A stretch of 64,000 nt of DNA. It comes from an uncultured Actinomycetota bacterium (GTDB lineage: Bacteria > Actinomycetota > Actinomycetes > Propionibacteriales > Nocardioidaceae). Of this stretch, positions 20,626-49,581 are shown in pieces. How positions within the stretch are numbered: position 1 is the first letter of the stretch; the number at the start of each line of letters is the position of its first letter. The stretch covers positions 4,920-68,919 of the forward strand of contig CAWFRT010000005.1 of the NCBI GenBank assembly GCA_963818365.1. The letters run 5' to 3'. The translations under genes were made by a program, and so were the position numbers. The notes beneath the pieces are model-generated. The model saw nothing but the letters and a program-made list of their open reading frames with translations. It had not been told where the DNA came from and did no database searches.

Positions 20626-21663
20626 ATGCTCTCTGCTGCAACCCCATCTGGCATCGATTCGATCGGCACCCCGTCGCTGTGGGCACTGATTATCGGCGCA
20701 GTTCTCGTGCTGCTCGCCGCAGACTTCGTCATCACGCGCAAACCCCACGAGGTCTCGATGGGCGAGGCCATCGGGTGGTCGGCGTTCTACGTCGCGCTCC
20801 CTCTTGCGTTTGGCGGCTACATCTGGCAGGTCTTCGGGGCCGAACGCGGTGTGGAATACCTCACGGGCTACGTCGTGGAGAAGTCGTTGAGTGTGGACAA
20901 CCTCTTTGTCTTCCTCCTCCTGCTCGGCGCCTTCGCCGTGCCACGTGAGCTGCAACAAAGGGTGCTGCTTTTCGGCATCATCGGTGCACTCGTGCTGAGG
21001 GGCATCTTCATCGCCCTAGGGGCGGCAGCCCTATCGGCGTTCGACTTTGTGTTCTTGATCTTTGGCGCAATCCTGATCGTCACCGGCCTCAAAATCCTCC
21101 GCGATGCGTGGCGGGGTCACGCACACGCCATTGACGTCGATTCGCTTCGCAGCGTCCGGCTGGTACGCCGGCTCATGCCGGTCACGGCTGACTATCGAGG
21201 CACGGCGTTGCTCACCCGCGTGGATGGACGCCGCGCGCTCACACCGCTGGCCTTGGTCGTGGTGGCGGTCCTCGCGACTGATGTTGTCTTCGCGGTGGAC
21301 TCGGTGCCTGCGGTCTATGGCATCACCGGTGATCCGTTCCTGGTTTTCGCCACTAACGCCTTTGCGCTGTTGGGCTTGCGGGCGTTGTACTTCGTGTTGG
21401 AGGGGGCGCTGAGCAAGTTGTCGCATCTCGGCTTTGGGTTGGCCGCGATCCTCGGGTTCATCGGCATCAAGCTGGGATTGCACTGGGGCCACCTGCAGTG
21501 GTCGAGCATCCCCGAGATCCCGACCGTCACCTCACTGTTGGTCATTGTTGGCATCTTGACCGTGACTGTCATGACCAGCCTGGTGGCCGACCGTCGGCGG
21601 ACTCGGCTAGAGGAGCGGGTGGGCGGAGACTTGAGCCCGTCGGAGGACCTCACGGGGCGTTAG
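20626..21663 (+). CDS. TerC/Alx-family membrane protein (Mn homeostasis)
   Basis: EKSLSVDNLF, DVVFAVDSVPA, TNAFALLGLRALYF. Confidence 0.93.
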   Translation: MLSAATPSGIDSIGTPSLWALIIGAVLVLLAADFVITRKPHEVSMGEAIGWSAFYVALPLAFGGYIWQVFGAERGVEYLTGYVVEKSLSVDNLFVFLLLLGAFAVPRELQQRVLLFGIIGALVLRGIFIALGAAALSAFDFVFLIFGAILIVTGLKILRDAWRGHAHAIDVDSLRSVRLVRRLMPVTADYRGTALLTRVDGRRALTPLALVVVAVLATDVVFAVDSVPAVYGITGDPFLVFATNAFALLGLRALYFVLEGALSKLSHLGFGLAAILGFIGIKLGLHWGHLQWSSIPEIPTVTSLLVIVGILTVTVMTSLVADRRRTRLEERVGGDLSPSEDLTGR

Positions 21664-22818
21664 TCCGAGCGCGGCTGCGGCTAGGACGATGTCGTCAAAC
21701 TCGGGCTCGGCGTTGACGACGCGCCCTTGGTGCCAGGCTCGCTTCACCCTGATTGGCTGAGCATCGACGTGGACCGTGACGATGTCTCTTGCGAGCACCG
21801 TCCGGTCGACTTGGTAGGTCCGTAGTCCGATGCTCGTGGTGGATTGAAAAACCAGATCCGTCAAACTGTCGATCCGCTCTGCGGGTGCGAGCACGTGAAG
21901 GGTGTGGGCCGGGCGACCCTTCTTCATCAGAATCGGAGTCAACCAGGCATCGGCTGCACCGGCGTCGAGCAGAGCCTGGATCGTGCCTGGCCAGAGGCGC
22001 GGGTCGAGGTCGTCGACGTTGGTTTCGAGGACGGTCATTGGGGCCAGGACGGTCACTGGCGCCTCGGCGGCCGCAGCGTCCCCAAGCGGTTCGCCGATCA
22101 CGAGTCGGCACACATTGGCGTGGCCCTCCGGGTCGGCACTGCCGGCGCCGATCCCGACGGTCGTGATGTCCATGGCCGGCATCGCGCCGAATCTTTCCGC
22201 CAACGTCACCAGCAGCGCCACGCCGGTGGGGGTGGCCAGCTCGATATCGACAGGCCCACCGCGGGCGGCCGCGCCCGAGGATCGCAATAGTTCGAGCACC
22301 GCCGGGCCAGGCACCCTCAGCAGGCCGTGTTGGGTTTGCACGCTGCCGCCACCGAGGGAGATGGGGCCGCCCACCACGCGGCGTACGCCCAAGTGCTCGA
22401 GTGCCACGAGGGTGCCGACAATGTCGGTCAGGCTGTCGAGGGCGCCGACCTCATGGAAGTGGACTAGGTGGGCGGCGATGCCATGGACTCGGCTCTCGGC
22501 GTCGGCCAGCAGTTGGAAGACCGCGATCGCCTGCGCAGTGACGGTTGTGGACAGGGCGGCGGCTTCGATTAGGTCGATGATCTCGCCCAATCGACGGGGC
22601 CGGCTGGAAGGCTGGGTTTCTACGAGCGCGTGAGTGGCGCGGAACTCGCCGCGGCGTACGTCGTCGGCAGTGACGGAAACCTGATCGCCCAGCCCGACGG
22701 CGTGCAGCGCGTCGATGACAACCGAGATCGGGGCGCCGGCATCGAGGCAGGCCCCAAGCAGCATGTCGCCGCTGACGCCACCGCGGGAGTCGATCCAGGC
22801 GACCAGTCCGTCAGCCAT
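21607..22818 (-). CDS. larC: LarC nickel-insertion protein (nickel-pincer cofactor)
   Basis: GVSGDMLLGA, HFHEVGALDS, ELATPTG, ETNVDD, MKKGRP, TTSIGLR, PEFDD. Confidence 0.93.
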   Translation of the reverse strand: MADGLVAWIDSRGGVSGDMLLGACLDAGAPISVVIDALHAVGLGDQVSVTADDVRRGEFRATHALVETQPSSRPRRLGEIIDLIEAAALSTTVTAQAIAVFQLLADAESRVHGIAAHLVHFHEVGALDSLTDIVGTLVALEHLGVRRVVGGPISLGGGSVQTQHGLLRVPGPAVLELLRSSGAAARGGPVDIELATPTGVALLVTLAERFGAMPAMDITTVGIGAGSADPEGHANVCRLVIGEPLGDAAAAEAPVTVLAPMTVLETNVDDLDPRLWPGTIQALLDAGAADAWLTPILMKKGRPAHTLHVLAPAERIDSLTDLVFQSTTSIGLRTYQVDRTVLARDIVTVHVDAQPIRVKRAWHQGRVVNAEPEFDDIVLAAAALGLTPREVLRRAQVSAHPLL

Positions 22819-23647
22819 GGGCGCGGCTTGCGCTGGCTTGATTCATCGACCCCGAGCGGAAACCCATCGGGTCTACTTCGACCCGATCAAAGCCCAAGAT
22901 GGTCGCGGTGATGGCCGGAAAGGCAGCCAGGGCTGGCACCAGGGCTAGGTCAATCTCGACCTTGGCCACCGCGCCGAGGTCGCGGACGCGGAGGTTGCGC
23001 ACCGGCAAACCTGCCGCCAGACAGGCCTGTCGTAGGTCGTGTTCGGCGCGTTCGACCCGGCCGAGTCGGGCGGGGGTGATGGTTAGGCCATAGGCAATTC
23101 GGCTCGAAAGACAAGCGGCGGCCGGTTTGTCGGCCGTGGTCAGCCCCCAATCCCGGGAGGCCTCGCGGACCTGCGCCTTGGTGAGCCCAGCGTCGCGAAG
23201 TGGCGTGATTGCCCCGCGCTGGGCGGCCGCCCTGATCCCTGGCCGAAATGGATCAACGGCGTCGTCGGCGTTCGTTCCGGTCGCGACTGCGTTGAGATTG
23301 AGCTGGGCGGCGAGCGGAGCGAGGATGTCGAGGAGCTCGGCCTTGCAGTGAAAGCATCGGTCGGGGCCGTTGGCGCGATAGCCCTCGCGTGACATTTCGT
23401 GCGTGGCCGGGGTCAGGTGACGCACACCGAGGCTGGCGGCGTACTTCGTGGCGTCAGCCAGCTCGGTGGCCGGGAGCGAGGAACTGACTGCAGTCGCCGC
23501 GACGACGAGGTCTGGGCCGAGGGCGCGGACGGCGGCGGCCAGGAGAAAGGCAGAATCTGCGCCGCCCGAGAATGCGATCAGGAGTGATCCGGACGCCCGG
23601 AGCCCCACGTCGAGCGTCGCCAACTGGTCGTGCAGAGCGGTCTTCAC
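22811..23647 (-). CDS. larE: LarE ATP-dependent sulfur transferase
   Basis: AFSGGADS PP-loop, RCFHCK, GTNADD, RPG, ACLSSR; GTGA overlap with larB. Confidence 0.92.
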   Translation of the reverse strand: MKTALHDQLATLDVGLRASGSLLIAFSGGADSAFLLAAAVRALGPDLVVAATAVSSSLPATELADATKYAASLGVRHLTPATHEMSREGYRANGPDRCFHCKAELLDILAPLAAQLNLNAVATGTNADDAVDPFRPGIRAAAQRGAITPLRDAGLTKAQVREASRDWGLTTADKPAAACLSSRIAYGLTITPARLGRVERAEHDLRQACLAAGLPVRNLRVRDLGAVAKVEIDLALVPALAAFPAITATILGFDRVEVDPMGFRSGSMNQASASRAHG

Positions 23648-24303
23648 GAAGCGTCCCGAGCATGCTTCAAGATGCGGATGGCCGCACACGCGGCGCCAAA
23701 GCCGTTGTCGATCCCGACCACGGTGATGCCCGGGCTGCAGGACGCGAGCATGCCAAGAAGTGCGGTGATTCCCTCAAGCCCAGAGCCATAACCCGTGCTG
23801 GTCGGGACCGCGATGATGGGCGCGCGGGTGAGGCCGGCAACCACGCTGGCGAGGGCTCCCTCCATGCCAGCCAGCACGATCACTACCTCGGCGGCGTCGA
23901 GGTGTGCTTGATGGGACAAGACTCGGTGGAGGCCTGCCACGCCAACATCAGCGATCAGTTCGGTGGCGAAGCCATAGGCCGCGAGGACGGCTTGAGTCTC
24001 GTGGGCAATCGGCAGATCAGCGGTGCCTGCGGTCAGCAGGGTGACATTGCCAGCTTGGCTGGCGGCTGGTCGCCAAGTCAGTGTCGCGAGCGAGCCGCCG
24101 ATGATGGTCGAGCCAGGGTTGATCGCCTGGGCGGCTTTGGATTGAGGCTCATCGGCCCGGGTGAGGAGGACCGGACCCGTGGTTTGTGCGAGTAACCCGC
24201 TGACCGCGGCGGCGCATTGTTCCGGAGTCTTGCCGGGAGCATAAACCGCCTCGGCAAGGTTCGTTCGTCCCTCGCGGGTCGGATCGAGGTGCAACTCGGG
24301 CAT
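23644..24303 (-). CDS. larB: LarB (PurE-like carboxylase/hydrolase)
   Basis: EAVYAPGKT, TAGTADLP, DVGVAGLHR, AGMEGAL, PTSTGYG, NGFGAA. Confidence 0.93.
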   Translation of the reverse strand: MPELHLDPTREGRTNLAEAVYAPGKTPEQCAAAVSGLLAQTTGPVLLTRADEPQSKAAQAINPGSTIIGGSLATLTWRPAASQAGNVTLLTAGTADLPIAHETQAVLAAYGFATELIADVGVAGLHRVLSHQAHLDAAEVVIVLAGMEGALASVVAGLTRAPIIAVPTSTGYGSGLEGITALLGMLASCSPGITVVGIDNGFGAACAAIRILKHARDAS

Positions 24304-24347
24304 GAGCCCATGGTGCCCTAGATCGATCGGCACGGGCCGGGCGAGCC

Positions 24348-24842
24348 TCACTGATCCGCGTCTAGTCGGACACAGTCGCCACACCGGCGTTCATGTCGCG
24401 CCGTCACCTGACAACACGTCGTACGCCGAAAAGTGGGGCCGAGCTCGCCAGTCCACGCGTCTGCCAAAGGTCTGCTCAGGAGCGCGTTGGTCGCGACGGC
24501 GAAGATGCGCGCGGTGTGTTCTGGGACTTCTTGGGCGAGGATCCCAGCACTCGAGGCGATCACCGAGGCCAGGTTTCCCCACAGAATTGGCTGCGTTAGG
24601 GTCCCGCGACTGGCTGTGGTCACGAGGTCGGTGAGCGGCCCGGAGACAGCCTTTTCGAGGGCCAGCGGATCTCCTGTTATGGCCGCTCGCAGAGCAGGCA
24701 GCACGATGGTGCCGGCTGCTTGGAGCGTGACGAGTGATTCGGCTGCCCCCTGTTTGATGTCGTCCACCGGCGTGTCGGTGAGCTGAGCGAGGGCGATGCG
24801 CTTGCGCGCGGCGCTGGCCAGGAAGGTCGCCAGATCGCTCAA
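24348..24842 (-). CDS. FhuF-like (2Fe-2S)-binding protein
   Basis: C-terminal RRTTCC-x10-CGDC motif. Confidence 0.72.
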   Translation of the reverse strand: MSDLATFLASAARKRIALAQLTDTPVDDIKQGAAESLVTLQAAGTIVLPALRAAITGDPLALEKAVSGPLTDLVTTASRGTLTQPILWGNLASVIASSAGILAQEVPEHTARIFAVATNALLSRPLADAWTGELGPTFRRTTCCQVTARHERRCGDCVRLDADQ

Positions 24843-25675
24843 GCCAGGATGTCCTGGAGATTGTGGGGAGTTTCTGCGCGGGCGAACGCGCGGCGGACAA
24901 GTTCACCGAAGACCAGCCCGAGGATCAGCCAGGTGATCAGGTGCAGTCCCAGCGAATACAGGCGGAAGTCGTAAAGGAGATCTGCCGGGAACCCGGGAAA
25001 GACGATGGTGCCCGCGTCGTCGGTCAGCGGAAGCGGGGTCTCGGTGGTTCTTGTGAGGCCGCTCATTGAGCCCGTGGTGGGGAAGAGGACCAACATTGCC
25101 GTCGCGCCTGCGAACCAAGTGGCCGCGCCGGCGAGGAGGCCGTTCGGCGTGGTGGATCGCTGCATCATTCGTCGGGCCACCCACACTGCGACCACCATCA
25201 GGGCCACCGAGGCAATGACGAGCAGCAAGTAGTAGCCACCTCGTGGTCGTGCGGTTTCGTCGAGCGAGACCGCTGGCGGATTGGCTGGGTATTTCAAGAA
25301 CGGCAGCAGATTTATCGCCACGAAGCCGGCGAGGGCAAGCAGGAACGCCAGGGCTTGGGGCGACACCTTCTCGAAGCGGCCAAGGCAGCCGGCATACACC
25401 ACTGAGAAGACTGCCCCCAGCGCGACGGCGTACCCAATGACGCCGACGGCGAGTCCCCAACCCGCTTGAGTGGCGCGACTGACGACAGCTTCTTCGCCGT
25501 GGGAATGGCCAGACTCTTGGGCGTGGGCCAGGGCGCTTTCGGCCGCAGCCCGGCCGGACTCAAAGTTGATGGCCTGGCCGATCAGTGGCTCGCCAACGAA
25601 GCGGGCATAACCGAAAGCAATCAGGCCAGCGACGAGGCCGGCCGCGAGACCATTGAGGACGAGGCGGCGTTCCAT
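24839..25675 (-). CDS. cbtA: CbtA putative cobalt transporter subunit
   Basis: GEPLIGQAINFE, HSH, LKYPANPPAV, DLLYDFRLYS. Confidence 0.9.
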   Translation of the reverse strand: MERRLVLNGLAAGLVAGLIAFGYARFVGEPLIGQAINFESGRAAAESALAHAQESGHSHGEEAVVSRATQAGWGLAVGVIGYAVALGAVFSVVYAGCLGRFEKVSPQALAFLLALAGFVAINLLPFLKYPANPPAVSLDETARPRGGYYLLLVIASVALMVVAVWVARRMMQRSTTPNGLLAGAATWFAGATAMLVLFPTTGSMSGLTRTTETPLPLTDDAGTIVFPGFPADLLYDFRLYSLGLHLITWLILGLVFGELVRRAFARAETPHNLQDILA

Positions 25676-25699: not shown

Positions 25700-25936
25700 T
25701 CAGTGACACGGGAAACCGAGGCTGTGGCGAGCGTCATGGAAGAGTTCGTGCAGCAGCAGCCCGTCACCGGTCACCGAGACGGAGCCCTGGTCGATACCAA
25801 GGAAGTAGATCGCGGCGATGCCCATCAAGAGCGCTCCCATGAACCACAGGCCGGTGATGGTGAGTGAGATCGGGCGGGCGCCGGCCCTGACGTTGAGTGG
25901 GCTGCTGGCTGCGGCTGACGGAGAGCTGGGGGGCAC
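25700..25936 (-). CDS. cbtB: CbtB putative cobalt transporter subunit
   Basis: One TM followed by HELFHDARHSLGFPCH. Confidence 0.92.
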   Translation of the reverse strand: MPPSSPSAAASSPLNVRAGARPISLTITGLWFMGALLMGIAAIYFLGIDQGSVSVTGDGLLLHELFHDARHSLGFPCH

Positions 25937-25976
25937 GTTTCACTCCTTCGAGGCGTAAGTATTATGAGAAACGTAC

Positions 25977-25992
25977 CTCTCCTATAGTAGAT
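25977..25992. promoter_or_regulatory. Candidate operator, copy 1 (cbtB/osmC-like divergence)
   Basis: CTCTCCTATAGTAGAT, 11/16 to GTTTACTATAGTAAAC. Confidence 0.45.
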
Positions 25993-26016
25993 TCGTCCAG
26001 AGCGGAGGAGGGGCTT

Positions 26017-26421
26017 GTGTCCGAACGAGTTGTCAGTGCGACGTGGTCGCCGGGACCGCTGAACACCACCGTGGAATTCGACACGCGGCAGACGATGCTT
26101 GTTGACGAGCCAGTCTCTGTGGGTGGGACGGGAATGGGCCCGCAGCCAACGGATCTCTTCATCGCATCGGTGGCGTCGTGCTTCACGTTGGCCTTGGTGT
26201 ACGCCGCGGGGAAGGCAGGCTTGTCGCTGACCTCAGTGGAGGTCGTGGTGACCGGCACCTATGCCGGACCACGTTTCTCCGAGATTGCCATCCATGCCGA
26301 GCTGGGCGGCGTACCCACTAGCGAGCGGGACGCCTTGGTCGCCTCCGCCGAGCGCTATTGCTATGTGACCAACACCCTCCGTCGCCCCCCAACGGTCACC
26401 ACCACCTCCACCTCCCGCTGA
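26017..26421 (+). CDS. OsmC-like family protein
   Basis: VDEPVSVGGTGMGPQPTDLFIASVASCF, ERYCYVTNTL. Confidence 0.85.
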   Translation: MSERVVSATWSPGPLNTTVEFDTRQTMLVDEPVSVGGTGMGPQPTDLFIASVASCFTLALVYAAGKAGLSLTSVEVVVTGTYAGPRFSEIAIHAELGGVPTSERDALVASAERYCYVTNTLRRPPTVTTTSTSR

Positions 26422-26513
26422 GGAGTCACGCAGATCCGGCGAGGCGTCACGTAAACCCGGCGAGGAGTCACGCAGATCCGGCGAGGCGTCACGTAAACCC
26501 GGCGAGCCGTCAC
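26420..26513 (+). repeat. 21-bp periodic array (ABAB plus half unit)
   Basis: GAGGAGTCACGCAGATCCGGC alternating with GAGGCGTCACGTAAACCCGGC. Confidence 0.9.
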
Positions 26514-26727
26514 CGTCGGATCGGCCGGCATGCCTGAACTGCTCAATGTCTGCTGATGTCGGGCCGCCAGACTTCCTTTAGCGCGAGCCAATCAACTGAC
26601 ATGGGCCATCCGCTGGTAGTCCGGATCGGGGTTTGTTGCAGGGAGGCCGGCTCGGCTGCAACAAGTCTGCAACGGCGCCGAGTTGGATGAATTCATCTCG
26701 GCTCCCCATCCCCCATGGAGGCGCACC

Positions 26728-27179
26728 ATGAGCAAAGTCGTTGTTGATACCGCAATTAGTGACGCCTCGTTGGGTTTACGTGACTCCTCGCCGGGTCTGC
26801 GTGAGCCTCGGCGGGTTTGCGTGACGCCTCGCCGGATCTGCGTGACGCCTCGCCGGGTGAGGCGTTGGCGAGCGTGCACTACTTGGCGGAGCGGCCATGC
26901 CGCTGTCGGTTCGCGCGGGATACGCAGGTGCACCACGATCAGTTGCTGCGCATCGCCAGCGATGGCGACGCCTTCTTCGAGTTGATGGAGTTGGCGGTCA
27001 CCTGGGGCGAGTTGGACTACTCCGAAATGCCGGTGATTCCGCCCAATCGGTGGCTTGAGTTCGTCGACTCCCACATGTGGGCCGATGGCGAGAAGGCCGA
27101 ACGAATGCTCGCCCTTGCCACCGATGTCGCGCTGGGTTCGGCACGCGCAACGGCTCGCCTGGAGCGGTCCGGCAGCTGA
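26728..27179 (+). CDS. Hypothetical protein with the repeat array in its 5' region; probably frameshifted, or starting near 26928
   Basis: GGAGG RBS and ATG at 26728; protein-like C-terminus (VHYLAERPCRC...LAVTWGELDYS) is in the -1 frame. Confidence 0.5.
26759..26856 (-). repeat. 21-bp periodic array, inverted relative to 26420-26513
   Basis: Five GTGAC(T/G)CCTC-type cores at 21-bp spacing; one unit (GTGAGCCTC) is 1 bp short. Confidence 0.88.
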
Positions 27180-28179: not shown

Positions 28180-28188
28180 ATAGGAAAC
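28173..28188. promoter_or_regulatory. Candidate operator, copy 2 (AIR synthase-like/comA divergence)
   Basis: GTTGCATATAGGAAAC, 12/16 to consensus. Confidence 0.5.
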
Positions 28189-28209
28189 GATAGATTTAGG
28201 ATCCGACAC

Positions 28210-39319: not shown

Positions 39320-39326
39320 TCCGCCG

Positions 39327-40225: not shown

Positions 40226-40243
40226 TCTAGATACCCTCCCGCG

Positions 40244-40283: not shown

Positions 40284-40289
40284 TTGCGG

Positions 40290-40360
40290 GGTTTCGAGAC
40301 GGCGCTAACGCGCCTCCTCAACCACCGGACGGGACGGCGCTAACGCGCCTCCTCAACCAA
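40290..40360 (+). repeat. REP-like element, two units
   Basis: GGTTTCGAGAC-GGCGCTAACGCGCC-TCCTCAACCA, then a second hairpin and tail. Confidence 0.85.
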
Positions 40361-40414
40361 CATGCAGGACGGCGCGCAGGCGCCGGCTCAACCGCCAACC
40401 ACGAAGGAGGAGCC

Positions 40415-41661: not shown

Positions 41662-42047
41662 CGTCCGCCTCCGGCGTACTCGACATCGAAGGGGTGGCCG
41701 CTCCTCCGCGCTCTAATGGCGAGTTGGTCTTTGGCGCCCCCTGGGAGAGCCGAACCTTCGGGATGGCGATGGCGCTGTATGACGCCGGCGCCTTCGCGTG
41801 GGATGACTTTCGCGATGCGTTGATCGCGCGGATCTCGGCCTGGGAGGCGGACCCGCCCGAGGGCGAGTGCTACTCCTACTACCAATGCTGGCAGGGTGCC
41901 CTCGAAGATGTGCTCGCGGCCAAGGGTCTCGTCACCCCCGACACGTTGGCCACCCGCGGTGCCGAACTGGCGGCTCGTCCCGCAGGCTATGACCACGGTC
42001 ACGATCATGGCGACGGGGACCACGACCACGGAGACCACCACCACTAG
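41658..42047 (+). CDS. Nitrile hydratase accessory/activator protein with His-rich tail
   Basis: [23 protein letters not shown], tail [17 protein letters not shown]. Confidence 0.9.
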
Positions 42048-42054: not shown

Positions 42055-42097
42055 GAGTGGAGGAAATAGCGCACCTGGTGCGCTATTTCCTCCACTC
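42055..42097. repeat. Perfect 43-bp palindrome, family P
   Basis: 20-bp arms GAGTGGAGGAAATAGCGCAC / GTGCGCTATTTCCTCCACTC, CTG loop. Confidence 0.92.
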
Positions 42098-42104
42098 TAA
42101 TCCG

Positions 42105-43067
42105 CTACCCCACCCGGCCGAGGGCGATAACGCAGCCCTGTCCGCACGGGTGGAGGGTTCCCTCCCAGCCACCGGCTTCCAGGAGTTGTCCGATGCGCTG
42201 CGCGGTGTGACAGCCGCGGTTGTGGACCTGACCCCAACCCAGCCGCACGGTTTGTCGCCCGTCGACTAGGGCATCCAGATCTCGGTCGAGGTCGCGGTCT
42301 CGTTGGTGCGACGAAGCATGGAAGAGGCGGCCATCGAGTTCAACGGTCAGCCCGAAAGGCTCGAAAGTGAGGTCGTCATAGAGCTTGCCAACGGTGCCAA
42401 CCCACGAGACCTGATGTAACGCCGGAGGCAATCCGTGAGGTCGTTGGACAAGGCGAACGAAGTCGTTTTCCAACACCGAGTGGGTCCCCATCGCAACGTC
42501 ATTGAGGATGCCGATCAGCCAGTCGCGTCGCCGCAACCGCGGACGTTGGTGTAGCGCGGCCAGCAACCGCTCGGGCGTCGTACGCCGTGAGCGGCAGGCG
42601 TCCGCAACCACCTCAAGGGCGTCCATCTCGAAGGGCTGCTCGGCGGCAACATCGAGAACCGCCTCTTCAATCCGCACCCGAGGAGGGCTGCCCTCTCGGA
42701 CGCGGTCGTCAAAGTCGCCCTGTCGGCAGATGACATAGCCGGTTCGCGATTTGACCCGTCTCCCTTGCGAGACCGTGATCGTGATCGGGTCGGCGTCACG
42801 TTCGGGGTGCCAGCCCGGACCGTTGGCGACCCGCAGGGCAGATGTCTTGCCGAGCGCGGCCGGGGCATAGAACAACGTGCCTGCCCACGCCCGTTGTATC
42901 CAGGTCGGCTGACCTGTGTGGTTGATGAAGACCCCGGGCATCAGCCGCACCAGTTGGCGCCTCCGGAGCATTCGATCGAGCGCAGGCTTGGTTACACCGA
43001 TCGCCACCAGCTGTCGGCGAGACACCACACCGTTTTGGTCTGCGAAGAGTTGTCCGAGGGCATTCAT
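42105..43067 (-). CDS. AbiEi-antitoxin-like N-terminal domain plus DUF559/Vsr-like nuclease-fold protein
   Basis: QNGVVSRRQL, LVRLMPGVF, HSVLE, VELDGRLFH, DRDLDRD, TVRLGW. Confidence 0.8.
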   Translation of the reverse strand: MNALGQLFADQNGVVSRRQLVAIGVTKPALDRMLRRRQLVRLMPGVFINHTGQPTWIQRAWAGTLFYAPAALGKTSALRVANGPGWHPERDADPITITVSQGRRVKSRTGYVICRQGDFDDRVREGSPPRVRIEEAVLDVAAEQPFEMDALEVVADACRSRRTTPERLLAALHQRPRLRRRDWLIGILNDVAMGTHSVLENDFVRLVQRPHGLPPALHQVSWVGTVGKLYDDLTFEPFGLTVELDGRLFHASSHQRDRDLDRDLDALVDGRQTVRLGWGQVHNRGCHTAQRIGQLLEAGGWEGTLHPCGQGCVIALGRVG

Positions 43068-43118
43068 CGGTCCAGTGTGTGCGAATCGGCCGACCCAAGG
43101 CGCACGAGCCCCGCTGCC

Positions 43119-43143
43119 TGTGGATGAACCCGCGTGTGGATAA
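43119..43143. promoter_or_regulatory. Two DnaA-box-like 9-mers upstream of the AbiEi/DUF559-like gene
   Basis: TGTGGATAA (43135-43143, reverse complement of TTATCCACA) and TGTGGATGA (43119-43127). Confidence 0.5.
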
Positions 43144-43148
43144 CTAAC

Positions 43149-43185
43149 TGGAGGAAATGGCGCATCTGGTGCGCTATTTCCTCCA
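43149..43185. repeat. Palindrome, family P
   Basis: TGGAGGAAATGGCGCA-TCTGG-TGCGCTATTTCCTCCA. Confidence 0.88.
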
Positions 43186-43369
43186 ACTTAGTCGCCGGAA
43201 AGTTGAGGCTCGCTGATTTAGCGCGTGAATGTGGTCATGGCGACCGTCCAGCTGCGCAACTATGACGCCGCGGCCCATGGCGCTCCGCGGCAGCGAGGTG
43301 CCGATTCGACCCATGCCACGCCTGGCGCGCACCCAGGCGTCGAGTGCGTCGTCGACGTCACGGGCTGAA

Positions 43370-43696
43370 ATGGATGGTTTGATCGCCACCGCAATGGGGC
43401 TCTTCAAGATTGCGGCCGTCGTCGCCGCGACTCTCGCCTCGTCGTGGGCTCTCTTTATGTTCGGCTACTCGAACCCCGAACTGGCTGCGCAGTGGCTGCC
43501 GCGCTTCGATGTTGTCACCAGACACCTTTGGGGGCTGGGCGTCTTGCTCGCCCTATTGGGGCTGAGCATCGGTGCATCGACGAGTCTCATTGCGCGACGG
43601 ATAGGCCAGTCAGCGTGGGCCTTGGTGCCGGGCCTCTGGGTGGTGGCTTGCTTCGCCGTCCTTCTGCTCGGTCCGCATTCCTCGTCGGGTTCCTGA
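43370..43696 (+). CDS. Small hypothetical membrane protein (about three TM helices)
   Basis: Hydrophobic ORF lying between two family-P palindromes. Confidence 0.55.
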   Translation: MDGLIATAMGLFKIAAVVAATLASSWALFMFGYSNPELAAQWLPRFDVVTRHLWGLGVLLALLGLSIGASTSLIARRIGQSAWALVPGLWVVACFAVLLLGPHSSSGS

Positions 43697-43717
43697 CTCT
43701 GGTGGATAACAACTAAC

Positions 43718-43754
43718 TGGAGGAAATGGCGCACCAGGTGCGCTATTTCCTCCA
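43718..43754. repeat. Palindrome, family P
   Basis: TGGAGGAAATGGCGCAC-CAG-GTGCGCTATTTCCTCCA. Confidence 0.88.
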
Positions 43755-43774: not shown

Positions 43775-44956
43775 TCAGCCGGCGGAAGGGTCGCCGTACA
43801 ACTCAAGGTGGCGGAGGGCGCTGCCGGTCCAGGAATACTTCTCGGCGACGGGTCGCCCGCCCTCGACCAGCCGCGCGCGCAACTCACCGTCGATCGCGAC
43901 TCGCTCCAACGCATCGGCCAGCGCCAGATGATCGGCCACAGCAGGCATCAACGCAGACACCCCGTCGACCAAATATTCGCCGAACACATCAATGTCAGAG
44001 GTCACCGCGGGCCGCCCAGCCGCCAACGCTTCCAGCACCGCGAGACCCCAGCCTTCGTTTGTCGACGGATAGGCGAGCGCGTCGCAGGCGTGATACCAAC
44101 CCACCAACTCTGACTCCGGCACAGTGCCGAGGATGATCACGTCTTTGTCCAACGCCAAACCCAACTCGTCGATCTCGCGCAGGCAATTGTCGCGATAGGC
44201 CGCATAGTCCTGAAACGAGTGACCACCCAACACAGCGACAGCTGGCGGCGAAGGCATCCGCGACTTCAACTCCGCGAGCGCCCGCACGAGATGGATCGCC
44301 CCTTTGCGTGGCTCGAGGCCGCCGACGGCAAGGAACAAGAAGCGATCAGGGGGGATGCCGGTGCGCGCCCGCAACTTTGCAACCAAGTCATCGTCAGCGG
44401 CCGCAAACCGCGGCAGATCCACTCCGTTCCACACCACTGATGCCTCAACCCCATAGTCCGCCAGCAACAATTGGCGCCAATGATCGCTGACCACGAAGAC
44501 CTGATCGGGTTCGTGGATCGCGGCGATCTGGCAATCGATGAGGGCCTGCGTGGTGAAGTCGTCGACGTGATGAACGGTGCGTACGACGCGCACGGGAGTG
44601 TCGCCGTGAGCGATCTGGGCCTCCCTCACCCGCACCGCCGCCCGCGCAGAAATGCAGTCCTGGGTGTGCAGGATGTCGAATCCTCCGACGGCCCGTTGCA
44701 ACCCGACCTCCAGGGCATCAATGCTGGCGAAGACCTTCTCTTCCAAGGTGCCTACATCGCCGGGAGCGGGGAACACCAGCGTCGGAGCAGCGACCTCCCG
44801 ATAGAAGCCCACCTCCGGATCGCCGAGCGTGATGATCGTGACATCCGCACCCGCGGCGTACATCGCCTCGCCCAACGCGAGAGTGTGCACCACCCCTCCG
44901 CGAGGTTTGGTGGAGTAGGTGATTAGCGCTATCCGCGGGCCAGATCTCTCGGGCAC
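43775..44956 (-). CDS. MSMEG_0565-family GT4 glycosyltransferase
   Basis: IALITYSTKPRGGVVHTLAL, LHTQDCIS, TVHHVDDFT, GGLEPRKG, EGWGLAVLEALA. Confidence 0.92.
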   Translation of the reverse strand: MPERSGPRIALITYSTKPRGGVVHTLALGEAMYAAGADVTIITLGDPEVGFYREVAAPTLVFPAPGDVGTLEEKVFASIDALEVGLQRAVGGFDILHTQDCISARAAVRVREAQIAHGDTPVRVVRTVHHVDDFTTQALIDCQIAAIHEPDQVFVVSDHWRQLLLADYGVEASVVWNGVDLPRFAAADDDLVAKLRARTGIPPDRFLFLAVGGLEPRKGAIHLVRALAELKSRMPSPPAVAVLGGHSFQDYAAYRDNCLREIDELGLALDKDVIILGTVPESELVGWYHACDALAYPSTNEGWGLAVLEALAAGRPAVTSDIDVFGEYLVDGVSALMPAVADHLALADALERVAIDGELRARLVEGGRPVAEKYSWTGSALRHLELYGDPSAG

Positions 44957-46512
44957 TACAGGACCTTCTTCACCAGAGCGGGGTCGCGGGTCGCAATAGC
45001 GCCCGCTGCCAACGCCGCCCGGGCGGCCGTCTCGGTGACGATGCAGCCAGCGGCTTCCAGGGTGGACCGTTGGGCGGCGAAACCCTGCGGATCCTGGTCG
45101 GTGCCGAGGACGTACGCCACGACTTGAGCGCCCCCGGCATCGTGAATCTCACGACAAGCCGGGGCAAGCTGTCCGGCGGGATCATCGTGGGACCCATAAC
45201 CGATCACCACGTCGAGCAGGATCGCTGCCAGGTCGGACTCTTGACCGGCCTCGCGTAGCAGCTCCAATCGAGCCTCCGGGTCGATCATCGGGTGTGGCCG
45301 ACCTTGGGTGTATTCCTCCTCGCCAAGATCCAAACAGATGTGCGAGCCTGCCGGGGCCGGGACATGGAGGGACTTGTCGAGCGGGGTGTTTGACCAGACC
45401 TTGCCAAGAATCGGCCCCAGGATGGTTAGTGCTTCGTAGCACAGTGTGCCGCCCGAATAGAGGCCCCGCACCAGCGTCTGCTCTTCGCGAAGTCTTCCCA
45501 GGGAGTGGGTGATGGAGCTTTCGAGTGAACCCACCACATCAGGCACTTCGTCGCCGAGCAACCGCAGCGTTTCGAGCACGCCTGCCTCAAGCGTCGCGGC
45601 CACGCGAGCCGTGGACGGTAGCTCAAAGGAGGCTGTCGTGCCGACGTACGCCGCCACAAAAGGCATGTCGCCAGCCTCGGCGATCACTGCCCTGGCTACG
45701 TCGTCGGCGGGGGGCTTCGACACAAAGAGGATGGCTTCGACGTCATCGCGGGCTCGCAGCGACGCCACCGCCAGCCGGGCCATCCGGCCGTCGACTTCGG
45801 CGTTGAGGTCGCGCCCACCCAGCCCGATCACGGCGATCACACCCTCGCCAAATCGGTCGAGCAAACTCATCGCTTCCTGGGCGCCCGTGCCGGCGGCCGC
45901 GATCACGCCGATCCGGCCAGGCTTCACCACGTTGGCAAAGCCAAGCCCGGTCTCGCCCAACATCGCGGTGCCCGCGCCCGGACCCATCACCAGCCGCCCA
46001 AGCGCACGGGCCCGGTCCTTGAGTTCGATTTCAGCATCGACCGGGATGTTGTCGCTAAAGAGCAACACGTCGAGCCCAGCCGACAGCGCCTTGTGGGCCT
46101 CAAGCGGGGCATAGTCGCCGGGCACAGAGATGACGGCGACATTGCTGCCGGGTTGGGCTTCGATGGCGGCCCGCAGAGAGCGAGGGCTGGCCACCGGGCC
46201 GGACGCAGCCGATTCACGCGTGCTGAAAACGGCGGTTTCGGCAGCGTCCAGGGCCGCCGCGACAACTTCATCTGAAGCAGAGCGCACCGCAAAGAAGAGA
46301 TCGTTTCCGCCGGCCGGCTCGATCGACGCCGTGTCGAAACCTTCGGCTCGCAATTCCTCTAGATTGGCGGACGTCGCCATCGCGACCGCCGTCCATTCGA
46401 CTCCGGCAACGGCATACATTGCCCGCGTTCCCGAGAGTTGCACCACCGAGTCGACGTAGGTGTCGCGGAACACCTTGAGGGCCCGATTGCTTGCTGCGCT
46501 TTCCCGGCTCAT
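44956..46512 (-). CDS. fdrA: FdrA-family acyl-CoA synthetase-like protein (AllF-like)
   Basis: YVDSVVQL, ISVPGDYA, FSDN, MGPGAGT, GLYSGGTLCYE, DLGEEEYTQGRPHPMIDP. Confidence 0.9.
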   Translation of the reverse strand: MSRESAASNRALKVFRDTYVDSVVQLSGTRAMYAVAGVEWTAVAMATSANLEELRAEGFDTASIEPAGGNDLFFAVRSASDEVVAAALDAAETAVFSTRESAASGPVASPRSLRAAIEAQPGSNVAVISVPGDYAPLEAHKALSAGLDVLLFSDNIPVDAEIELKDRARALGRLVMGPGAGTAMLGETGLGFANVVKPGRIGVIAAAGTGAQEAMSLLDRFGEGVIAVIGLGGRDLNAEVDGRMARLAVASLRARDDVEAILFVSKPPADDVARAVIAEAGDMPFVAAYVGTTASFELPSTARVAATLEAGVLETLRLLGDEVPDVVGSLESSITHSLGRLREEQTLVRGLYSGGTLCYEALTILGPILGKVWSNTPLDKSLHVPAPAGSHICLDLGEEEYTQGRPHPMIDPEARLELLREAGQESDLAAILLDVVIGYGSHDDPAGQLAPACREIHDAGGAQVVAYVLGTDQDPQGFAAQRSTLEAAGCIVTETAARAALAAGAIATRDPALVKKVL

Positions 46513-47480
46513 CGGCTGCTCGCAAGAGAGTCGGCCAGCACGATGGTGGTCCCGACGCCGCGCGAATCGTCAGCAGTGGAGTCCAAGGCGTCCGCCACCA
46601 GTTCGGGCGAAGTGATGATCGCTCGCCTGCCGCCGTTGCGGACAAAGCTGATCGCCGCGCGCACTTTGGGGCCCATCGAGCCCTCCGGGAACTGGCCTTC
46701 GTCGAGGTAGCGCTCGGCTTCCACACTGGTGATGACGTCCAGATATCTGACTGTCGGCTTGCCGAAGTCGATCGCCACCTTCTCCACACCCGTGACCAAC
46801 ACCAAGGTATCAGCGCCGATGGAGGAGGCAACCTGCTCGGCGGCGTAGTCCTTGTCAACGACGGCGTCCACGCCGACGTAGCCATCCACGCGAGAAACCA
46901 CCGGGATCCCGCCGCCGCCAGCGGCAATCACGACCGCGCCAGAGTTCACCAGGGTGCGGATCGCGGCGCTTTCGACGATCGAGATCGGTCTCGGGGAGGG
47001 TACGACGCGACGCCAGCCGCGACCCGAATCCTCAACCATCGTCCAACCACGATCGGTTGTGAGCGTCTTCACCTGATCCTCGCTGAAGAACGGTCCAATT
47101 GGCTTAGTTGGCCGGGTGAAAGCAGGATCATCGGCGGCAACCACGGTGTGGGTGACCACTGCCACCGCCTCGACTTGGCCGTGCGAGGCGCGGCGCAAAG
47201 AGAGGGCAATCATGCTGCCAAGGTAGGCCTCGGTCATGGCGCCAAGGGTGAAGAGCGGCTGAGCCGGGACCAAGTCAGCACCCTCTTCCTGCTGAATCGC
47301 CAACGAGCCGACCTGTGGTCCGTTTCCATGCACGACCGCAACATTCCAGCCTGACTGGATGAGGTGGTTGATGCCGTGGGCCATGGCGAGGGAGTTGATC
47401 TCCTGCTCGTCGTACGTCCCGCGTTGACCCTCCTTGGTGAAGGCGTTGCCGCCCAGGGCGACCACCACAGAACGACGCAT
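46509..47480 (-). CDS. Carbamate kinase
   Basis: VVALGGNA, HGNGPQVG, PTKPIGPF, RRVVPSP, GGGGIP, DAVVDKD, GSMGPK. Confidence 0.95.
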   Translation of the reverse strand: MRRSVVVALGGNAFTKEGQRGTYDEQEINSLAMAHGINHLIQSGWNVAVVHGNGPQVGSLAIQQEEGADLVPAQPLFTLGAMTEAYLGSMIALSLRRASHGQVEAVAVVTHTVVAADDPAFTRPTKPIGPFFSEDQVKTLTTDRGWTMVEDSGRGWRRVVPSPRPISIVESAAIRTLVNSGAVVIAAGGGGIPVVSRVDGYVGVDAVVDKDYAAEQVASSIGADTLVLVTGVEKVAIDFGKPTVRYLDVITSVEAERYLDEGQFPEGSMGPKVRAAISFVRNGGRRAIITSPELVADALDSTADDSRGVGTTIVLADSLASSR

Positions 47481-47552: not shown

Positions 47553-47588
47553 TTGGACAATACGACGTTGACGTTTACTATAGTAAAC
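47553..47588 (+). promoter_or_regulatory. Promoter (TTGGAC-17-TACTAT) with perfect 16-bp operator palindrome, copy 4; probably a leaderless mRNA
   Basis: GTTTACTATAGTAAAC at 47573-47588, immediately before ATG 47589. Confidence 0.7.
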
Positions 47589-47966
47589 ATGACGGAAGAA
47601 GCGGTGCAAGCAACAGACGCCCCCGCACCCATCGATCCACGTCGTATCGCCGAGACGCTCAAAGTGGCGCGTTGGCGCGAAGCCGAGGACCGGGTCTACC
47701 CCCTGGTGATGGTGGATCCCGCGCTTTATCAGGCGGCGGTGGCAGCCGTCGCAAAAATTTGTGAAGTGGTTCGAGAACGAGGTCTTTCGCGCGCTGAGTT
47801 GCTGGCACTGAACAGCCACGAAGTTGCCGCCAGCGTCTTAGTTGACCCCGAGCTCTATCAGCAGGTGACCGGGCTCAACGGCTCGGCTGGTTTGTCTGCT
47901 GCCACCCTCGTCGAGGCTGCCCTCGCCCAAGTCGCGTCCTTCACACCCTCAGGAGATACCCCATGA
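47589..47966 (+). CDS. Hypothetical protein heading the radical SAM operon
   Basis: RWREAEDRVYPLVMVDPALY; ATGA overlap with the radical SAM gene. Confidence 0.7.
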   Translation: MTEEAVQATDAPAPIDPRRIAETLKVARWREAEDRVYPLVMVDPALYQAAVAAVAKICEVVRERGLSRAELLALNSHEVAASVLVDPELYQQVTGLNGSAGLSAATLVEAALAQVASFTPSGDTP

Positions 47967-49108
47967 GCCAGCAGGTCTCTGACGTCATTCCCACCACGCT
48001 GGGCGAGTTGATCGCCGACCTGCAAGCAGTGGGCATGCGGACTCGGAGTGAGGTCGAGCGTCGAGTTGGTGGGGCCGGACCTACTGATGTCGGGATGTTT
48101 TGGGTCGAGGGGATTGGCGTCACGATTCCCACCACGAGCAACGAGGCCAAGCACTCGCCGTACTCCTTGGAGGTCGAAGACGAGGGTACGGCGATCTATC
48201 GCGACGGTGTTCGGCTGGCCTCGGCGCACGGCGAGCGGCGGCCCAAGTTTTATGACCTGGAAACTGCCGACGGGGTTCCCTACTGGCAGATCGCACTCCT
48301 CCATCTCGACTCGTTGGCCAGCACCGTCGTCCAGCACTGTTCCTACTGGGGGAACGCCGATCAGTGCGGCTTCTGCGGGATCGGCCTGTCGCTGGATTCG
48401 GGGCGGACGATCGTCAAGAAGTCGCCAGCTCAGTTGGCCGAGGTTGCGGTCGCCGCGCGTGACCTGGATGGTGCCGTGGATGCGACGCTCACGACCGGGT
48501 CATCGAATGGCCGCGATCGTGGGGCGTTGTACGTCGCGAAGTGTGGGCAGGCGGTCAAGGAGGCCGCTGGTTTGCCGGTCGAGGTGCAGTTTGAGCCGCC
48601 GTTCGACCTCGACGTGATTAACCAGGTCGGCGGCATGGGGATCGACTCGGTCGGCATCCACATCGAAACTTTTGATCCTGCGGTGTTGGCGCGGGTGGCT
48701 CCTGGGAAGTTCCGGACCGGCATGGAGCGCTACTTCGAGGCGTGGGAGCGGGCGGTGTCAGTCTTCGGCTCGGGCCAGGTGTCGACGTACGTCATTCTGG
48801 GGATGGGTGAGGACCCTGAACTCACTATCGAAGGCTGCAAGCGAGCCGTCGACATCGGCGTCTATCCCTTCATCGTGCCGATCCGGCCGGTGGTCGGGAG
48901 CCTGCTCGAAGACATCGTCCCGCCGACCTCGGACTACACCGAACCGATCTATCGCAAGGTCGCGACCTACATGGCTGAGCGCGGCATGGACGCTTCGCAG
49001 GTCTCGGCTGGGTGCGCGCGTTGCCAGGCGTGTTCGGCGATCAACTCGATGAAGACGGACACGCCTTTGGTGTTGCTTGGCCCAACCCGGACGGCTGAGA
49101 GCGCCTGA
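47963..49108 (+). CDS. MSMEG_0568-family (NitD-type) radical SAM protein
   Basis: IALLHLDSLASTV, CSYWGNADQCGFC (Cx8Cx2C), TLTTG, GIHIE, STYVILGMGE, C-terminal GCARCQACS. Confidence 0.92.
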   Translation: MSQQVSDVIPTTLGELIADLQAVGMRTRSEVERRVGGAGPTDVGMFWVEGIGVTIPTTSNEAKHSPYSLEVEDEGTAIYRDGVRLASAHGERRPKFYDLETADGVPYWQIALLHLDSLASTVVQHCSYWGNADQCGFCGIGLSLDSGRTIVKKSPAQLAEVAVAARDLDGAVDATLTTGSSNGRDRGALYVAKCGQAVKEAAGLPVEVQFEPPFDLDVINQVGGMGIDSVGIHIETFDPAVLARVAPGKFRTGMERYFEAWERAVSVFGSGQVSTYVILGMGEDPELTIEGCKRAVDIGVYPFIVPIRPVVGSLLEDIVPPTSDYTEPIYRKVATYMAERGMDASQVSAGCARCQACSAINSMKTDTPLVLLGPTRTAESA

Positions 49109-49581
49109 TGAATGCGTCGAGTTCGGCAGCGGCGGCACCCGAGGTGTCGTGTCGAGCAGCGTCGACCTTGGCTGAACTCCAGGCGCATCGGGCGGTTCGC
49201 CATGCCGTGTTTGTCGTCGAGCAAGAGATCTTTGCAGGCGACGACATCGACGAACACGACGATGATCCACGCACGGTGCACGTCGTCGGCATGATTGGCG
49301 ACCAACCTGGCGGCGCAGTGCGGCTCTATCCCCTCGATGACGAGGGCGCACGTTGGCAGGGCGACCGACTCGCCGTACTCCCTGAGTTTCGGGCAGCTGG
49401 CCTCGGTGGACCACTGGTGAAGTACGCCGTTGCGACGGCGGCTGCTGCCGGTGGGACTCACATGGTTGCCCACATCCAGACCCCCAACGTGCGGTTCTTC
49501 GAATACCTCGGCTGGGAGGCCGACGGGGAGCAGGAAATCTACGTCGGTCGAACCCATCAGCCGATGATCATCCGCTGGTAG
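49108..49581 (+). CDS. MSMEG_0567/Sll0786-type (NitE) GNAT acetyltransferase
   Basis: RHAVFVVEQ, GAVRLYP, WQGDRLAV, AHIQTPNVRFFEYLGW. Confidence 0.9.
   Translation: MNASSSAAAAPEVSCRAASTLAELQAHRAVRHAVFVVEQEIFAGDDIDEHDDDPRTVHVVGMIGDQPGGAVRLYPLDDEGARWQGDRLAVLPEFRAAGLGGPLVKYAVATAAAAGGTHMVAHIQTPNVRFFEYLGWEADGEQEIYVGRTHQPMIIRW

Follow-up and report, generated by a model that had tools for sequence, protein, structure and literature searches.

A conserved actinobacterial gene cluster joining a CoM-type biosynthetic operon with Nit1C-type, carbamoyl-transfer and Lar genes

To our knowledge, coenzyme M (CoM) is known only from methanogenesis and methanotrophy and from bacterial alkene and epoxide metabolism, and the Nit1C/gpr genes, linked for about two decades to cyanide assimilation, polyhydroxybutyrate accumulation and peroxide resistance, have no chemistry that we know of. 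In Xanthobacter, the enzymes XcbA-E jointly turn phosphoenolpyruvate (PEP), sulfite and cysteine into CoM, all five activities being needed, and XcbA, a [2Fe-2S] protein, performs the reduction of sulfoethanethioaldehyde to CoM (PMC9457059). The gpr cluster of M. smegmatis, MSMEG_0565-0572, is induced about 100-fold by GlnR under nitrogen starvation; it gives peroxide resistance and raises NADPH/NADP, and a strain without it is sensitive to peroxide and grows less well as a biofilm when the medium is low in nitrogen (PMC6039565). In Pseudomonas, Nit1C is tied to cyanide assimilation. Here we describe a locus of an uncultured Nocardioidaceae bacterium in which relatives of both systems stand in one block with nitrile hydratase, carbamoyl-transfer and Lar genes. 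The window, by which we mean the whole 64,000-nucleotide stretch analysed (assembly GCA_963818365.1, contig CAWFRT010000005.1, positions 4,920 to 68,919 of the forward strand), has a G+C content of about 64% and belongs to a 3.4-Mb genome that is 99% complete (G000). Overlapping open reading frames (ORFs) were chosen by third-position G+C, and their products were scanned against Pfam and NCBIfam. We found no description of the CoM-type/Nit1C/carbamoyl combination in the literature searched.

The block comprises about 30 genes at 21607-49581 and holds the four modules that the first-pass annotation of this DNA had placed there, namely Xcb, Nit1C-type with nitrile hydratase, AllFGH/carbamate kinase and larBEC/cbtAB; all the elements it had named were recovered by the family scans. 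The ORF coordinates likewise bear out its four divergent promoter regions (cbtB/osmC, AIRS/comA, regulator/CoADR and carbamate kinase/125-aa ORF) and its coupled genes, most neighbours within an operon overlapping by 1-8 nt at their start and stop codons. Operon 1 (25936 down to 21607, minus strand) reads cbtB-cbtA-164-aa Cys-motif protein-larB-larE-larC and diverges from an osmC-like gene; operon 2 (28210-36991, plus) reads comA-xcbA-xcbD-xcbE-xcbC-allG-(azlC-azlD)-allH and diverges from an AIRS-like gene; operon 3 (37985-42047, plus) carries the CoADR-like gene, an 85-aa ORF, nitB and the nitrile hydratase beta, alpha and accessory genes, and diverges from an XRE-cupin regulator; operon 4 (47480 down to 43775, minus) reads carbamate kinase-fdrA-GT4; and operon 5 (47589-49581, plus), divergent from operon 4, carries the 125-aa ORF and the MSMEG_0568 radical S-adenosylmethionine (SAM) and MSMEG_0567 GNAT genes. 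The modules were thus correctly delimited, and two elements have to be added to the extent then given, the 85-aa ORF (39327-39584) and an AfsR/SARP-like regulator (49853-53059). Together these genes form a conserved, co-inherited set with a common promoter motif. That they constitute one co-regulated, co-inherited multi-operon system, in which a CoM-type thiol would serve a nitrogen-starvation pathway releasing ammonia and ATP via carbamoyl phosphate, is a reading to which we give an even chance.

The co-inheritance is best seen in other genomes. With XcbA as query, four related loci were found. In two Actinomycetota metagenome-assembled genomes (MAGs; G001 and G003) the whole layout from larC through the AfsR/SARP-like regulator is kept, at 50-99% protein identity, and a Mycolicibacterium MAG (G002) holds pieces of the cluster as far as its short contigs allow. 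DUF7714, the XcbA family, is present in 11 of the 401 genomes of a phylum sample, in which two further families carry the same set in other orders and without nitrile hydratase or lar: Xcb, allG/allH, fdrA, carbamate kinase, GT4, regulator, CoADR-like, nitB, radical SAM, GNAT, AIRS-like and OsmC. Searching with an XcbA family profile gave at least 540 relatives, of which the best 80 loci were examined. Genes were counted within 10 kb of xcbA, and many loci end at contig ends, which makes the counts lower bounds. The trio comA-xcbA-xcbD occurs in 80 of these 80 loci, usually with xcbE/xcbC and part or all of the recurring set: OsmC in 63, CoADR-like in 48, AIRS-like in 46, nitB in 44, allG in 43, GNAT in 39, carbamate kinase in 26, fdrA in 25, radical SAM in 24, GT4 in 23, larB/E/C in 19-21, nitrile hydratase beta in 17, SARP in 13, Amidohydro_2 in 8, cbtA in 1 and azlCD in 0. 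Carriers include cultured Pseudonocardia, Actinomycetospora, Nocardioides, Streptomyces chiangmaiensis and Planosporangium, and MAGs of Lapillicoccus, Propionibacteriaceae, Jiangellaceae and Acidimicrobiia.

Gene order varies among lineages, and dozens of genomes, belonging to several actinobacterial families, have the modules interleaved in one order or another. The co-occurrence search that the first-pass annotation had suggested, for ComA, NthA, MSMEG_0568 radical SAM and FdrA, finds at least six genomes with all four inside about 30 kb (the window's, G001, G003, Lapillicoccus L120, Streptomyces chiangmaiensis L085 and Acidimicrobiia L070). That the same set is kept through many rearrangements is strong evidence of functional linkage. 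The annotation had treated all four modules as one pathway; the linkage it drew holds, whereas nitrile hydratase (17/80) and larBEC/cbtAB (lar 21/80, cbtA 1/80) prove to be accessory and not members of the core; the nitrogen recovery on a thiol/sulfonate carrier that it proposed is a hypothesis. Judged by gene content, the locus is a nitrile-hydratase- and Lar-bearing version of a supercluster widespread in Actinomycetota.

The promoter motif ties the operons to one another. An exact 14-bp palindrome, TTTACTATAGTAAA, lies at 47574-47587 in the promoter region between carbamate kinase and the 125-aa ORF and ends one base 5' of the ATG. A copy, TTTACTATGATAGA, lies at 37900-37913 in the regulator/CoADR region, 16 nt 3' of a TTGACG -35 box, in a layout that recurs in two related loci (L001, L003), and another, TCTCCTATAGTAGA, lies at 25978-25991 between cbtB and osmC. 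These three window matches at up to 3 mismatches, all in divergent promoters, compare with 0.07 expected; genome-wide, allowing up to 2 mismatches leaves a single site in G000, and of the six found with up to 3, three belong to the locus. The exact palindrome is found at the same position between carbamate kinase and radical SAM in G001, G002 and G003, and in other lineages near-exact copies lie between AIRS and comA, 5' of the CoADR-like gene, or between carbamate kinase and osmC (10 sites in 1.61 Mb versus 0.03 in shuffles). The shared operator motif reported earlier is therefore borne out as a link between the lar/cbt, xcb, nitrile hydratase and carbamoyl/radical-SAM operons. The palindrome overlaps a -10 box (TATAGT) preceded by a -35 box (TTGAC) and is probably an operator laid over the promoter. 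Its predicted binder is most plausibly the PuuR-like XRE helix-turn-helix/cupin regulator (37242-37925, minus; PF01381, PF07883), which occurs in 34 of the 80 loci and is divergent from the CoADR-like gene in all of these.

Of the described operons, that of Xanthobacter autotrophicus Py2 (xcbA-E; PMC9457059) is the one closest to operon 2: the five homologues stand in one operon, an Xcb model is the best match of each, and the XcbA cysteines are kept. The phosphosulfolactate synthase gene comA (xcbB; 28210-28998, plus; PF02679, 267.9 bits) scores 236 bits against the archaeal equivalog model TIGR03849, below its cut-off of 280; its ORF call begins at 28132, and the ATG at 28210 agrees with the alignment. 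The XcbA family protein (DUF7714; 28995-29990, plus) passes its model (NF052538, 254.6 bits, cut-off 150; PF24830), and five Cys are invariant in the alignment. The PurB-type lyase-family enzyme XcbD-like (29828-31321, plus; NF052536, 563.6 bits, cut-off 600) and the ArgH-type XcbC-like (32336-33856, plus; NF052535, 413.7 bits, cut-off 575) have these models as best matches and stay below the cut-offs. The XcbE-like pyridoxal phosphate (PLP) enzyme (31314-32339, plus) reaches 197.4 bits with NF052537 (cut-off 450) and ties with the cysteate sulfo-lyase CuyA (196.6 bits), both scores lying far under cut-off. The operon therefore looks like a complete Xcb set for a CoM-type pathway, whose product may not be CoM, because the XcbC-, XcbD- and XcbE-like proteins and ComA fall under curated cut-offs and XcbE ties with CuyA. 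Unlike in Xanthobacter, there is no alkene monooxygenase and no epoxide-carboxylation context here, and the operon runs on into allG/allH. No soluble di-iron monooxygenase (PF02332) was found in G000, G001, G003, G325 or G437, and the classical alkene-oxidiser context is therefore missing from G000. DUF7714 also matches Methanosarcina acetivorans among the control genomes, a methanogen homologue of the bacterial last-step CoM enzyme.

Divergent from comA lies an AIR-synthase-like gene of the PurM superfamily (27196-28209, minus), putatively of the sll0787/MSMEG_0567 C-terminal type (TIGR04049, 251.7 bits, cut-off 321.3; PF00586, PF02769), whose product gives 187.8 bits to methanogenesis marker 2 and has only distant PDB relatives (ThiL, PurL, SelD, HypE). 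Its true start is likely 28179, which would leave 30 nt (28180-28209) to the comA ATG. A -10-like hexamer lies 7 nt 5' of each of the two start codons, and with that start the layout would suggest back-to-back leaderless transcripts.

With Nit1C (nitBCDEFGH of Pseudomonas, sll0783-0787 of Synechocystis, gpr of M. smegmatis) the locus shares four proteins that exceed their cut-offs: the DsrE-like NitB of the MSMEG_0572/Sll0783 family (39740-40225, plus; TIGR04044, 197.8 bits, cut-off 109.85), the MSMEG_0568-family radical SAM protein NitD (47963-49108, plus; TIGR04043, 382.9 bits, cut-off 303.7), the MSMEG_0567/Sll0786-type GNAT NitE (49108-49581, plus; TIGR04045, 96.6 bits, cut-off 68.45) and the MSMEG_0565-family GT4 glycosyltransferase (43775-44956, minus; TIGR04047, 343.7 bits, cut-off 259.85). 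The AIRS-like protein may be of the Nit1C type as well, although it scores below the cut-off of that model. Nit1C homologues are induced by nitrogen starvation. PDB sequence searches with NitB and the radical SAM protein gave no match. Here, however, the window has no Nit1C nitrilase (nitrile_sll0784; the best match in the genome, on another contig, reaches 204 bits against a cut-off of 502.6) and no locus protein matched the MSMEG_0569-type flavoprotein (NitH) model, the only flavoprotein being CoADR-like; a nitrile hydratase stands 3' of NitB, the CoADR-like gene heads the operon, and the Xcb operon, AllFGH with carbamate kinase, and OsmC are added. The radical SAM proteins of Xcb-bearing clusters score 383-419 bits, versus 448-524 bits in the highest-scoring clusters without Xcb; a same-family genome (G332) has a higher-scoring MSMEG_0568 radical SAM and no Xcb.

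The CoADR/Nox-family flavoprotein (37985-39319, plus; TIGR03385, 255.8 bits, below cut-off) has one redox Cys (SPCG) when aligned to PDB entry 6ruz. Its second dinucleotide motif reads EAGPLG instead of GxGxxG, and the form [EDHQN]-A-[GST]-P-L-G is found in nearly all cluster-linked copies, with or without lar and with few divergent exceptions, so that its reductant may be other than NAD(P)H. Between this gene and nitB lies the conserved 85-aa ORF (39327-39584, plus), which has a hydrophobic segment and no Pfam family match; tblastx finds it at 54-84% identity in L001, L003, L072, L080, L090 and L100, and this unannotated ORF is common to the Nocardioides-type and Pseudonocardia-type clusters. 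A 125-aa ORF 5' of the radical SAM gene (47589-47966, plus), with no family match in Pfam or NCBIfam, is conserved in L010, L011 and L012. The AfsR/SARP-like regulator (1068 aa; 49853-53059, minus) adjoins the GNAT gene and is 60-79% identical in G001, G002 and G003.

All four families of the E. coli allFGH (fdrA-ylbE-ylbF) oxamate carbamoyltransferase with AllK are present: FdrA, AllF-like (44956-46512, minus; PRK06091, 385 bits, below the subfamily cut-off of 433; PF00549), carbamate kinase (46509-47480, minus; NF009007, 321.2 bits, cut-off 266; TIGR00746, 346.7 bits), AllG (DUF1116; 33853-35277, plus; PF06545, 221.9 bits) and AllH (DUF2877; 36353-36991, plus; PF11392, 68.3 bits). In contrast to E. 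coli, the genes are split over two operons and the FdrA C-terminal tail is fused to the AllG N-terminus, residues 8-54 of AllG matching positions 506-552 of PRK06091. No allantoin-pathway family was seen among the locus proteins, so that the substrate of the AllFGH-like module is presumably different.

The genes for the nitrile hydratase beta and alpha subunits and the accessory protein (40415-42047, plus) all score above their cut-offs (TIGR03888, 173.1; TIGR01323, 306.6; TIGR03889, 69.2 bits), and together with the alpha-subunit VCTLCSCY site this confirms the cobalt type that had been assigned from the sequence. The beta-alpha-activator order, the VCTLCSCY motif and the His-rich C-terminal tail of the activator are those of the cobalt nitrile hydratase operons of Rhodococcus and Pseudonocardia; unlike these, the set has no amidase partner and belongs to a separate clade travelling with the supercluster. 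Indeed, in a maximum-likelihood tree of alpha subunits, 21 of 21 cluster-linked copies fall in one clade (support 83/81), and same-genome paralogues lie outside it, apart from one long-branch sequence; identity to the window's alpha subunit is 68-83% for cluster copies and 48-64% for same-genome paralogues. Where it is present, the phylogeny indicates that the nitrile hydratase is a dedicated component. It was found in 37 of 50 supercluster genomes, and its absence from the other 13 makes nitrile hydration a lineage-specific entry step and not the defining reaction; since the distribution given above makes nitrile hydratase an accessory, the system cannot be defined by a nitrile as its substrate. 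At the slot 3' of nitB, other lineages have nothing or an Amidohydro_2 protein and an unknown protein; a nitrilase, considered for that slot, was therefore rejected.

The remaining module resembles LarBCE nickel-pincer biosynthesis, with LarB, LarE and a two-domain LarC that all pass equivalog cut-offs, and differs from it in the lack of LarA, no match to Lar_N (PF09861) being found in G000, G001, G002 or G003. It comprises larC, the nickel insertion cyclometallase with LarC1 and LarC2 domains (21607-22818, minus; PF01969, 400.7 bits; TIGR00299, 185 bits, cut-off 90; NF052512, 139.6 bits, cut-off 50), larE, the ATP-dependent sulfur transferase (22811-23689, minus; TIGR00268, 264 bits, cut-off 150), and larB, the NaAD carboxylase/hydrolase (23644-24384, minus; NF033503, 230 bits, cut-off 175). 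LarE has a CxxC pair (CFHCK) and a third Cys (AAACLSS), a pattern that we take to resemble the [4Fe-4S]-type non-sacrificial LarE and not the single-Cys sacrificial type. Upstream, a 164-aa protein (24348-24842, minus) without a family match in Pfam or NCBIfam, 44-49% identical in L001 and L003, ends in C-C-x10-C-x2-C, presumably an FhuF-type [2Fe-2S] motif. The putative cobalt transporter subunit cbtA (24839-25675, minus; PF09490, 218.7 bits) and the small subunit cbtB (25700-25936, minus; PF09489, 44.5 bits, cut-off 27) probably supply cobalt and/or nickel; cbtB was absent from the list of 90-aa ORFs, and the osmC ORF, whose 5' end was mis-called, overlaps it there. Rfam returned only tRNA for the window, so no cobalamin riboswitch was found upstream of cbtAB, a region that carries the shared palindrome. 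The OsmC/Ohr-like thiol peroxidase (25897-26421, plus; PF02566, 67.5 bits) matches its family from residue 77, and its true start probably lies after 25990.

How lar is embedded is more telling than how often it occurs. The presence of larC in 42 of 50 supercluster genomes is uninformative, since 277 of the 401 phylum-sample genomes carry it anyway. The embedding pattern is informative: in 15 of 15 tallied genomes with an embedded larC, the nitrile hydratase alpha gene is on the same contig (about 3-20 kb away) and LarA is missing, and in supercluster genomes without nitrile hydratase lar never adjoins the cluster. Streptomyces chiangmaiensis also links larC to nitrile hydratase, but has a weak LarA-family match on another contig. 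LarBEC would make the nickel-pincer cofactor for a client other than LarA. Known non-LarA users are the aldo-keto reductase (AKR)-type NphT and an NPAD-dependent ornithine cyclodeaminase (OCD) (PMC13524815), and neither family is encoded in the locus. Three ideas on the role of lar were dropped. A nitrile hydratase that requires Lar is ruled out by Planosporangium G439 and Lapillicoccus G453, which have the cluster nitrile hydratase and no larC; the CoADR-like protein as the nickel-pincer client, considered for its degenerate NAD(P)H motif, is unsupported, since it has the same motif in clusters without lar; and no conserved gene that could be the client stands beside larE, its neighbours varying (luciferase-like monooxygenase, DoxX protein, LytR protein), as do lar gene orientation and outer neighbours between the window lineage and Pseudonocardia.

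What could such a gene set do? In the pathway to which we give an even chance, nitrogen limitation or oxidative stress would lead the Xcb enzymes to convert PEP, sulfite and cysteine to CoM or a closely related sulfonate thiol. This thiol would bear a one-carbon C-N unit as an S-cyano or an S- or N-carbamoyl adduct, and the CoADR-like enzyme and the DsrE-like NitB might deal with its disulfide or persulfide. In this lineage the cobalt nitrile hydratase would turn the cyano into the carbamoyl form; elsewhere the slot holds Amidohydro_2 or nothing. FdrA/AllG/AllH would then pass the carbamoyl group to phosphate, and carbamate kinase would convert carbamoyl phosphate to ATP, NH3 and CO2, with radical SAM, GNAT, AIRS-like and GT4 proteins possibly building or tailoring the carrier or the substrate. 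Thiocyanate hydration by nitrile-hydratase-family enzymes has precedent, and the scheme fits the constant presence of the carbamoyl module. A more specific form of the idea, quite unlikely as a whole in our estimate, is that these non-methanogenic, non-alkene-oxidising actinobacteria use CoM or a near analogue as a covalent carrier, a cyanide-, thiocyanate- or cyanamide-type unit being fixed on its sulfur, hydrated (here by nitrile hydratase), released by AllFGH-type phosphorolysis and turned by carbamate kinase into NH3 and ATP, and that in Lar-bearing versions one cluster enzyme outside LarA, AKR and OCD uses the nickel-pincer cofactor.

Several points weigh against the nitrogen-starvation pathway. 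The XcbC-, XcbD- and XcbE-like proteins and ComA all stay below the NCBIfam curated cut-offs; the radical SAM, GNAT, AIRS-like and GT4 proteins are left without an assigned step; with nitrile hydratase missing from 13 of 50 supercluster genomes, hydration of a cyano form cannot be a general step; and carbamate kinase could equally run in the synthetic direction. Moreover, the AllFGH substrates known to us are limited to oxalurate and oxamate.

The main rival is a low-molecular-weight-thiol redox defence, in which the Xcb thiol would be elaborated by the MshA/BshA-like GT4, GNAT, AIRS-like and radical SAM proteins, the OsmC-like protein would reduce peroxides and the CoADR-like enzyme would recycle the disulfide, leaving the carbamoyl module and nitrile hydratase as side activities. 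The OsmC-like and CoADR-like genes are indeed among the most constant members of the set, the GT4 is distantly similar to MshA and BshA, and the peroxide resistance and raised NADPH/NADP conferred by the M. smegmatis gpr cluster (PMC6039565) would be explained. However, such a defence leaves no role for FdrA/AllG/AllH and carbamate kinase, which recur across rearranged orders; canonical gpr/Nit1C clusters show the peroxide phenotype without Xcb genes; and the CoADR-like protein has lost the first glycine of the NAD(P)H motif. We regard this explanation as possible, though unlikely.

Less support can be found for a specialised-metabolite cluster under SARP control, making an exported, sulfonated, possibly carbamoylated or nitrile-bearing, glycosylated small molecule, with nitrile hydratase for tailoring or self-protection. 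In its favour, an AfsR/SARP-like regulator adjoins, the radical SAM, GNAT, GT4, PLP and lyase-family enzymes are of kinds commonly used for tailoring, and the carbamate kinase could be a source of carbamoyl phosphate; besides, the region that follows the tRNA-Leu gene and contains the block is variable, and a same-genus genome lacks the block. Nevertheless, the conserved core has no scaffold synthase or dedicated exporter, the SARP gene is in only 13 of the 80 loci, and homologous Nit1C/gpr genes answer nitrogen starvation and not secondary-metabolism cues, so that we hold this reading to be very unlikely. That independent operons merely lie side by side in a variable region is close to untenable. 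The modules have, it is true, each been described on their own, comparison with the same-genus genome shows the region to be an island, and larC is common in the phylum; the reading is nevertheless already contradicted by the interleaving of the modules (allG/allH in the xcb operon, fdrA and carbamate kinase with GT4, AIRS-like divergent from comA), by linkage kept through many gene orders in distant lineages and by a specific palindrome common to the modules.

Two strain-specific insertions interrupt the block. The first, azlC-azlD (35344-36356, plus; PF03591, PF05437), is absent from 80 of 80 related loci; the second (42059-43753) carries an AbiEi-like gene (42105-43067, minus) and a 155-aa membrane protein (43229-43696, plus). 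All of these genes are absent from G001 and G003, where about 200 bp at most separate the nitrile hydratase accessory gene from the glycosyltransferase gene. A 35-bp near-perfect palindrome, GGAGGAAATAGCGCACCTGGTGCGCTATTTCCTCC, brackets the insertions in four copies, one preceding azlCD (35286-35320) and three bracketing the AbiEi-like insertion (42059-42093, 43150-43184, 43719-43753); with about 16 sites genome-wide, a quarter lie in less than 1% of the genome. It could be a repetitive extragenic palindromic (REP)/miniature inverted-repeat transposable element (MITE)-like element marking insertion points. The 3' and intergenic stretches of the locus are filled by tandemly repeated units of 21 to 35 nt. 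Both the 24-nt unit GGCGCTAGCGCGCCTCCTCAACCA (tandem at 37067-37226 and 40301-40359; 54 copies genome-wide) and the GAGGAGTCACG arrays (26420-26510, 49590-49860; 76 copies) were considered as operators and rejected as REP-like from their copy number and 3'/intergenic position. The ORF called at 26592-27074, which runs over tandem repeats, is probably spurious.

Synteny with a same-genus (G343) and a same-family genome (G332) ends at tRNA-Leu(CAG) (16149-16232), and XcbA and LarC are absent from both genomes. The tRNA gene has TetR regulators and a ROK protein as neighbours, and no integrase was seen beside it. In G001 the two flanks are found together, with the cluster some 200 kb away; by this comparison the block behaves as a relocatable island. 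The right flank (53593-59000) encodes MTHFR-like, DUF1638, RACo-type corrinoid reductive activator and pterin-binding methyltransferase proteins and looks like a corrinoid methyltransferase system; it adjoins the cluster in G003. This flank is probably unrelated to the cluster, because in G001 it stays with the other flank, apart from the cluster.

In conclusion, what is new here is the conserved palindrome, the separate nitrile hydratase clade, the embedded-lar rule, the conserved 85-aa ORF and the island setting. That a complete Xcb-type operon is part of a nitrogen-starvation cluster in soil actinobacteria that number in the hundreds and lack alkene monooxygenases points to a third use of CoM. 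The fixed association of Nit1C genes with a sulfonate-thiol pathway and a carbamoyl-phosphate module suggests concrete, testable substrates, and the larBEC embedded in genomes without LarA leaves a small set of candidate new nickel-pincer enzymes. Experiments are within reach, since type strains in culture are among the carriers; cultured carriers include Pseudonocardia spinosispora DSM 44797, P. thermophila DSM 43832, Actinomycetospora succinea DSM 45775 and Nocardioides guangzhouensis. If the carrier cycle is true, it would give the Nit1C genes their first biochemical meaning, CoM a third physiological role, and the nickel-pincer cofactor a new class of enzymes.

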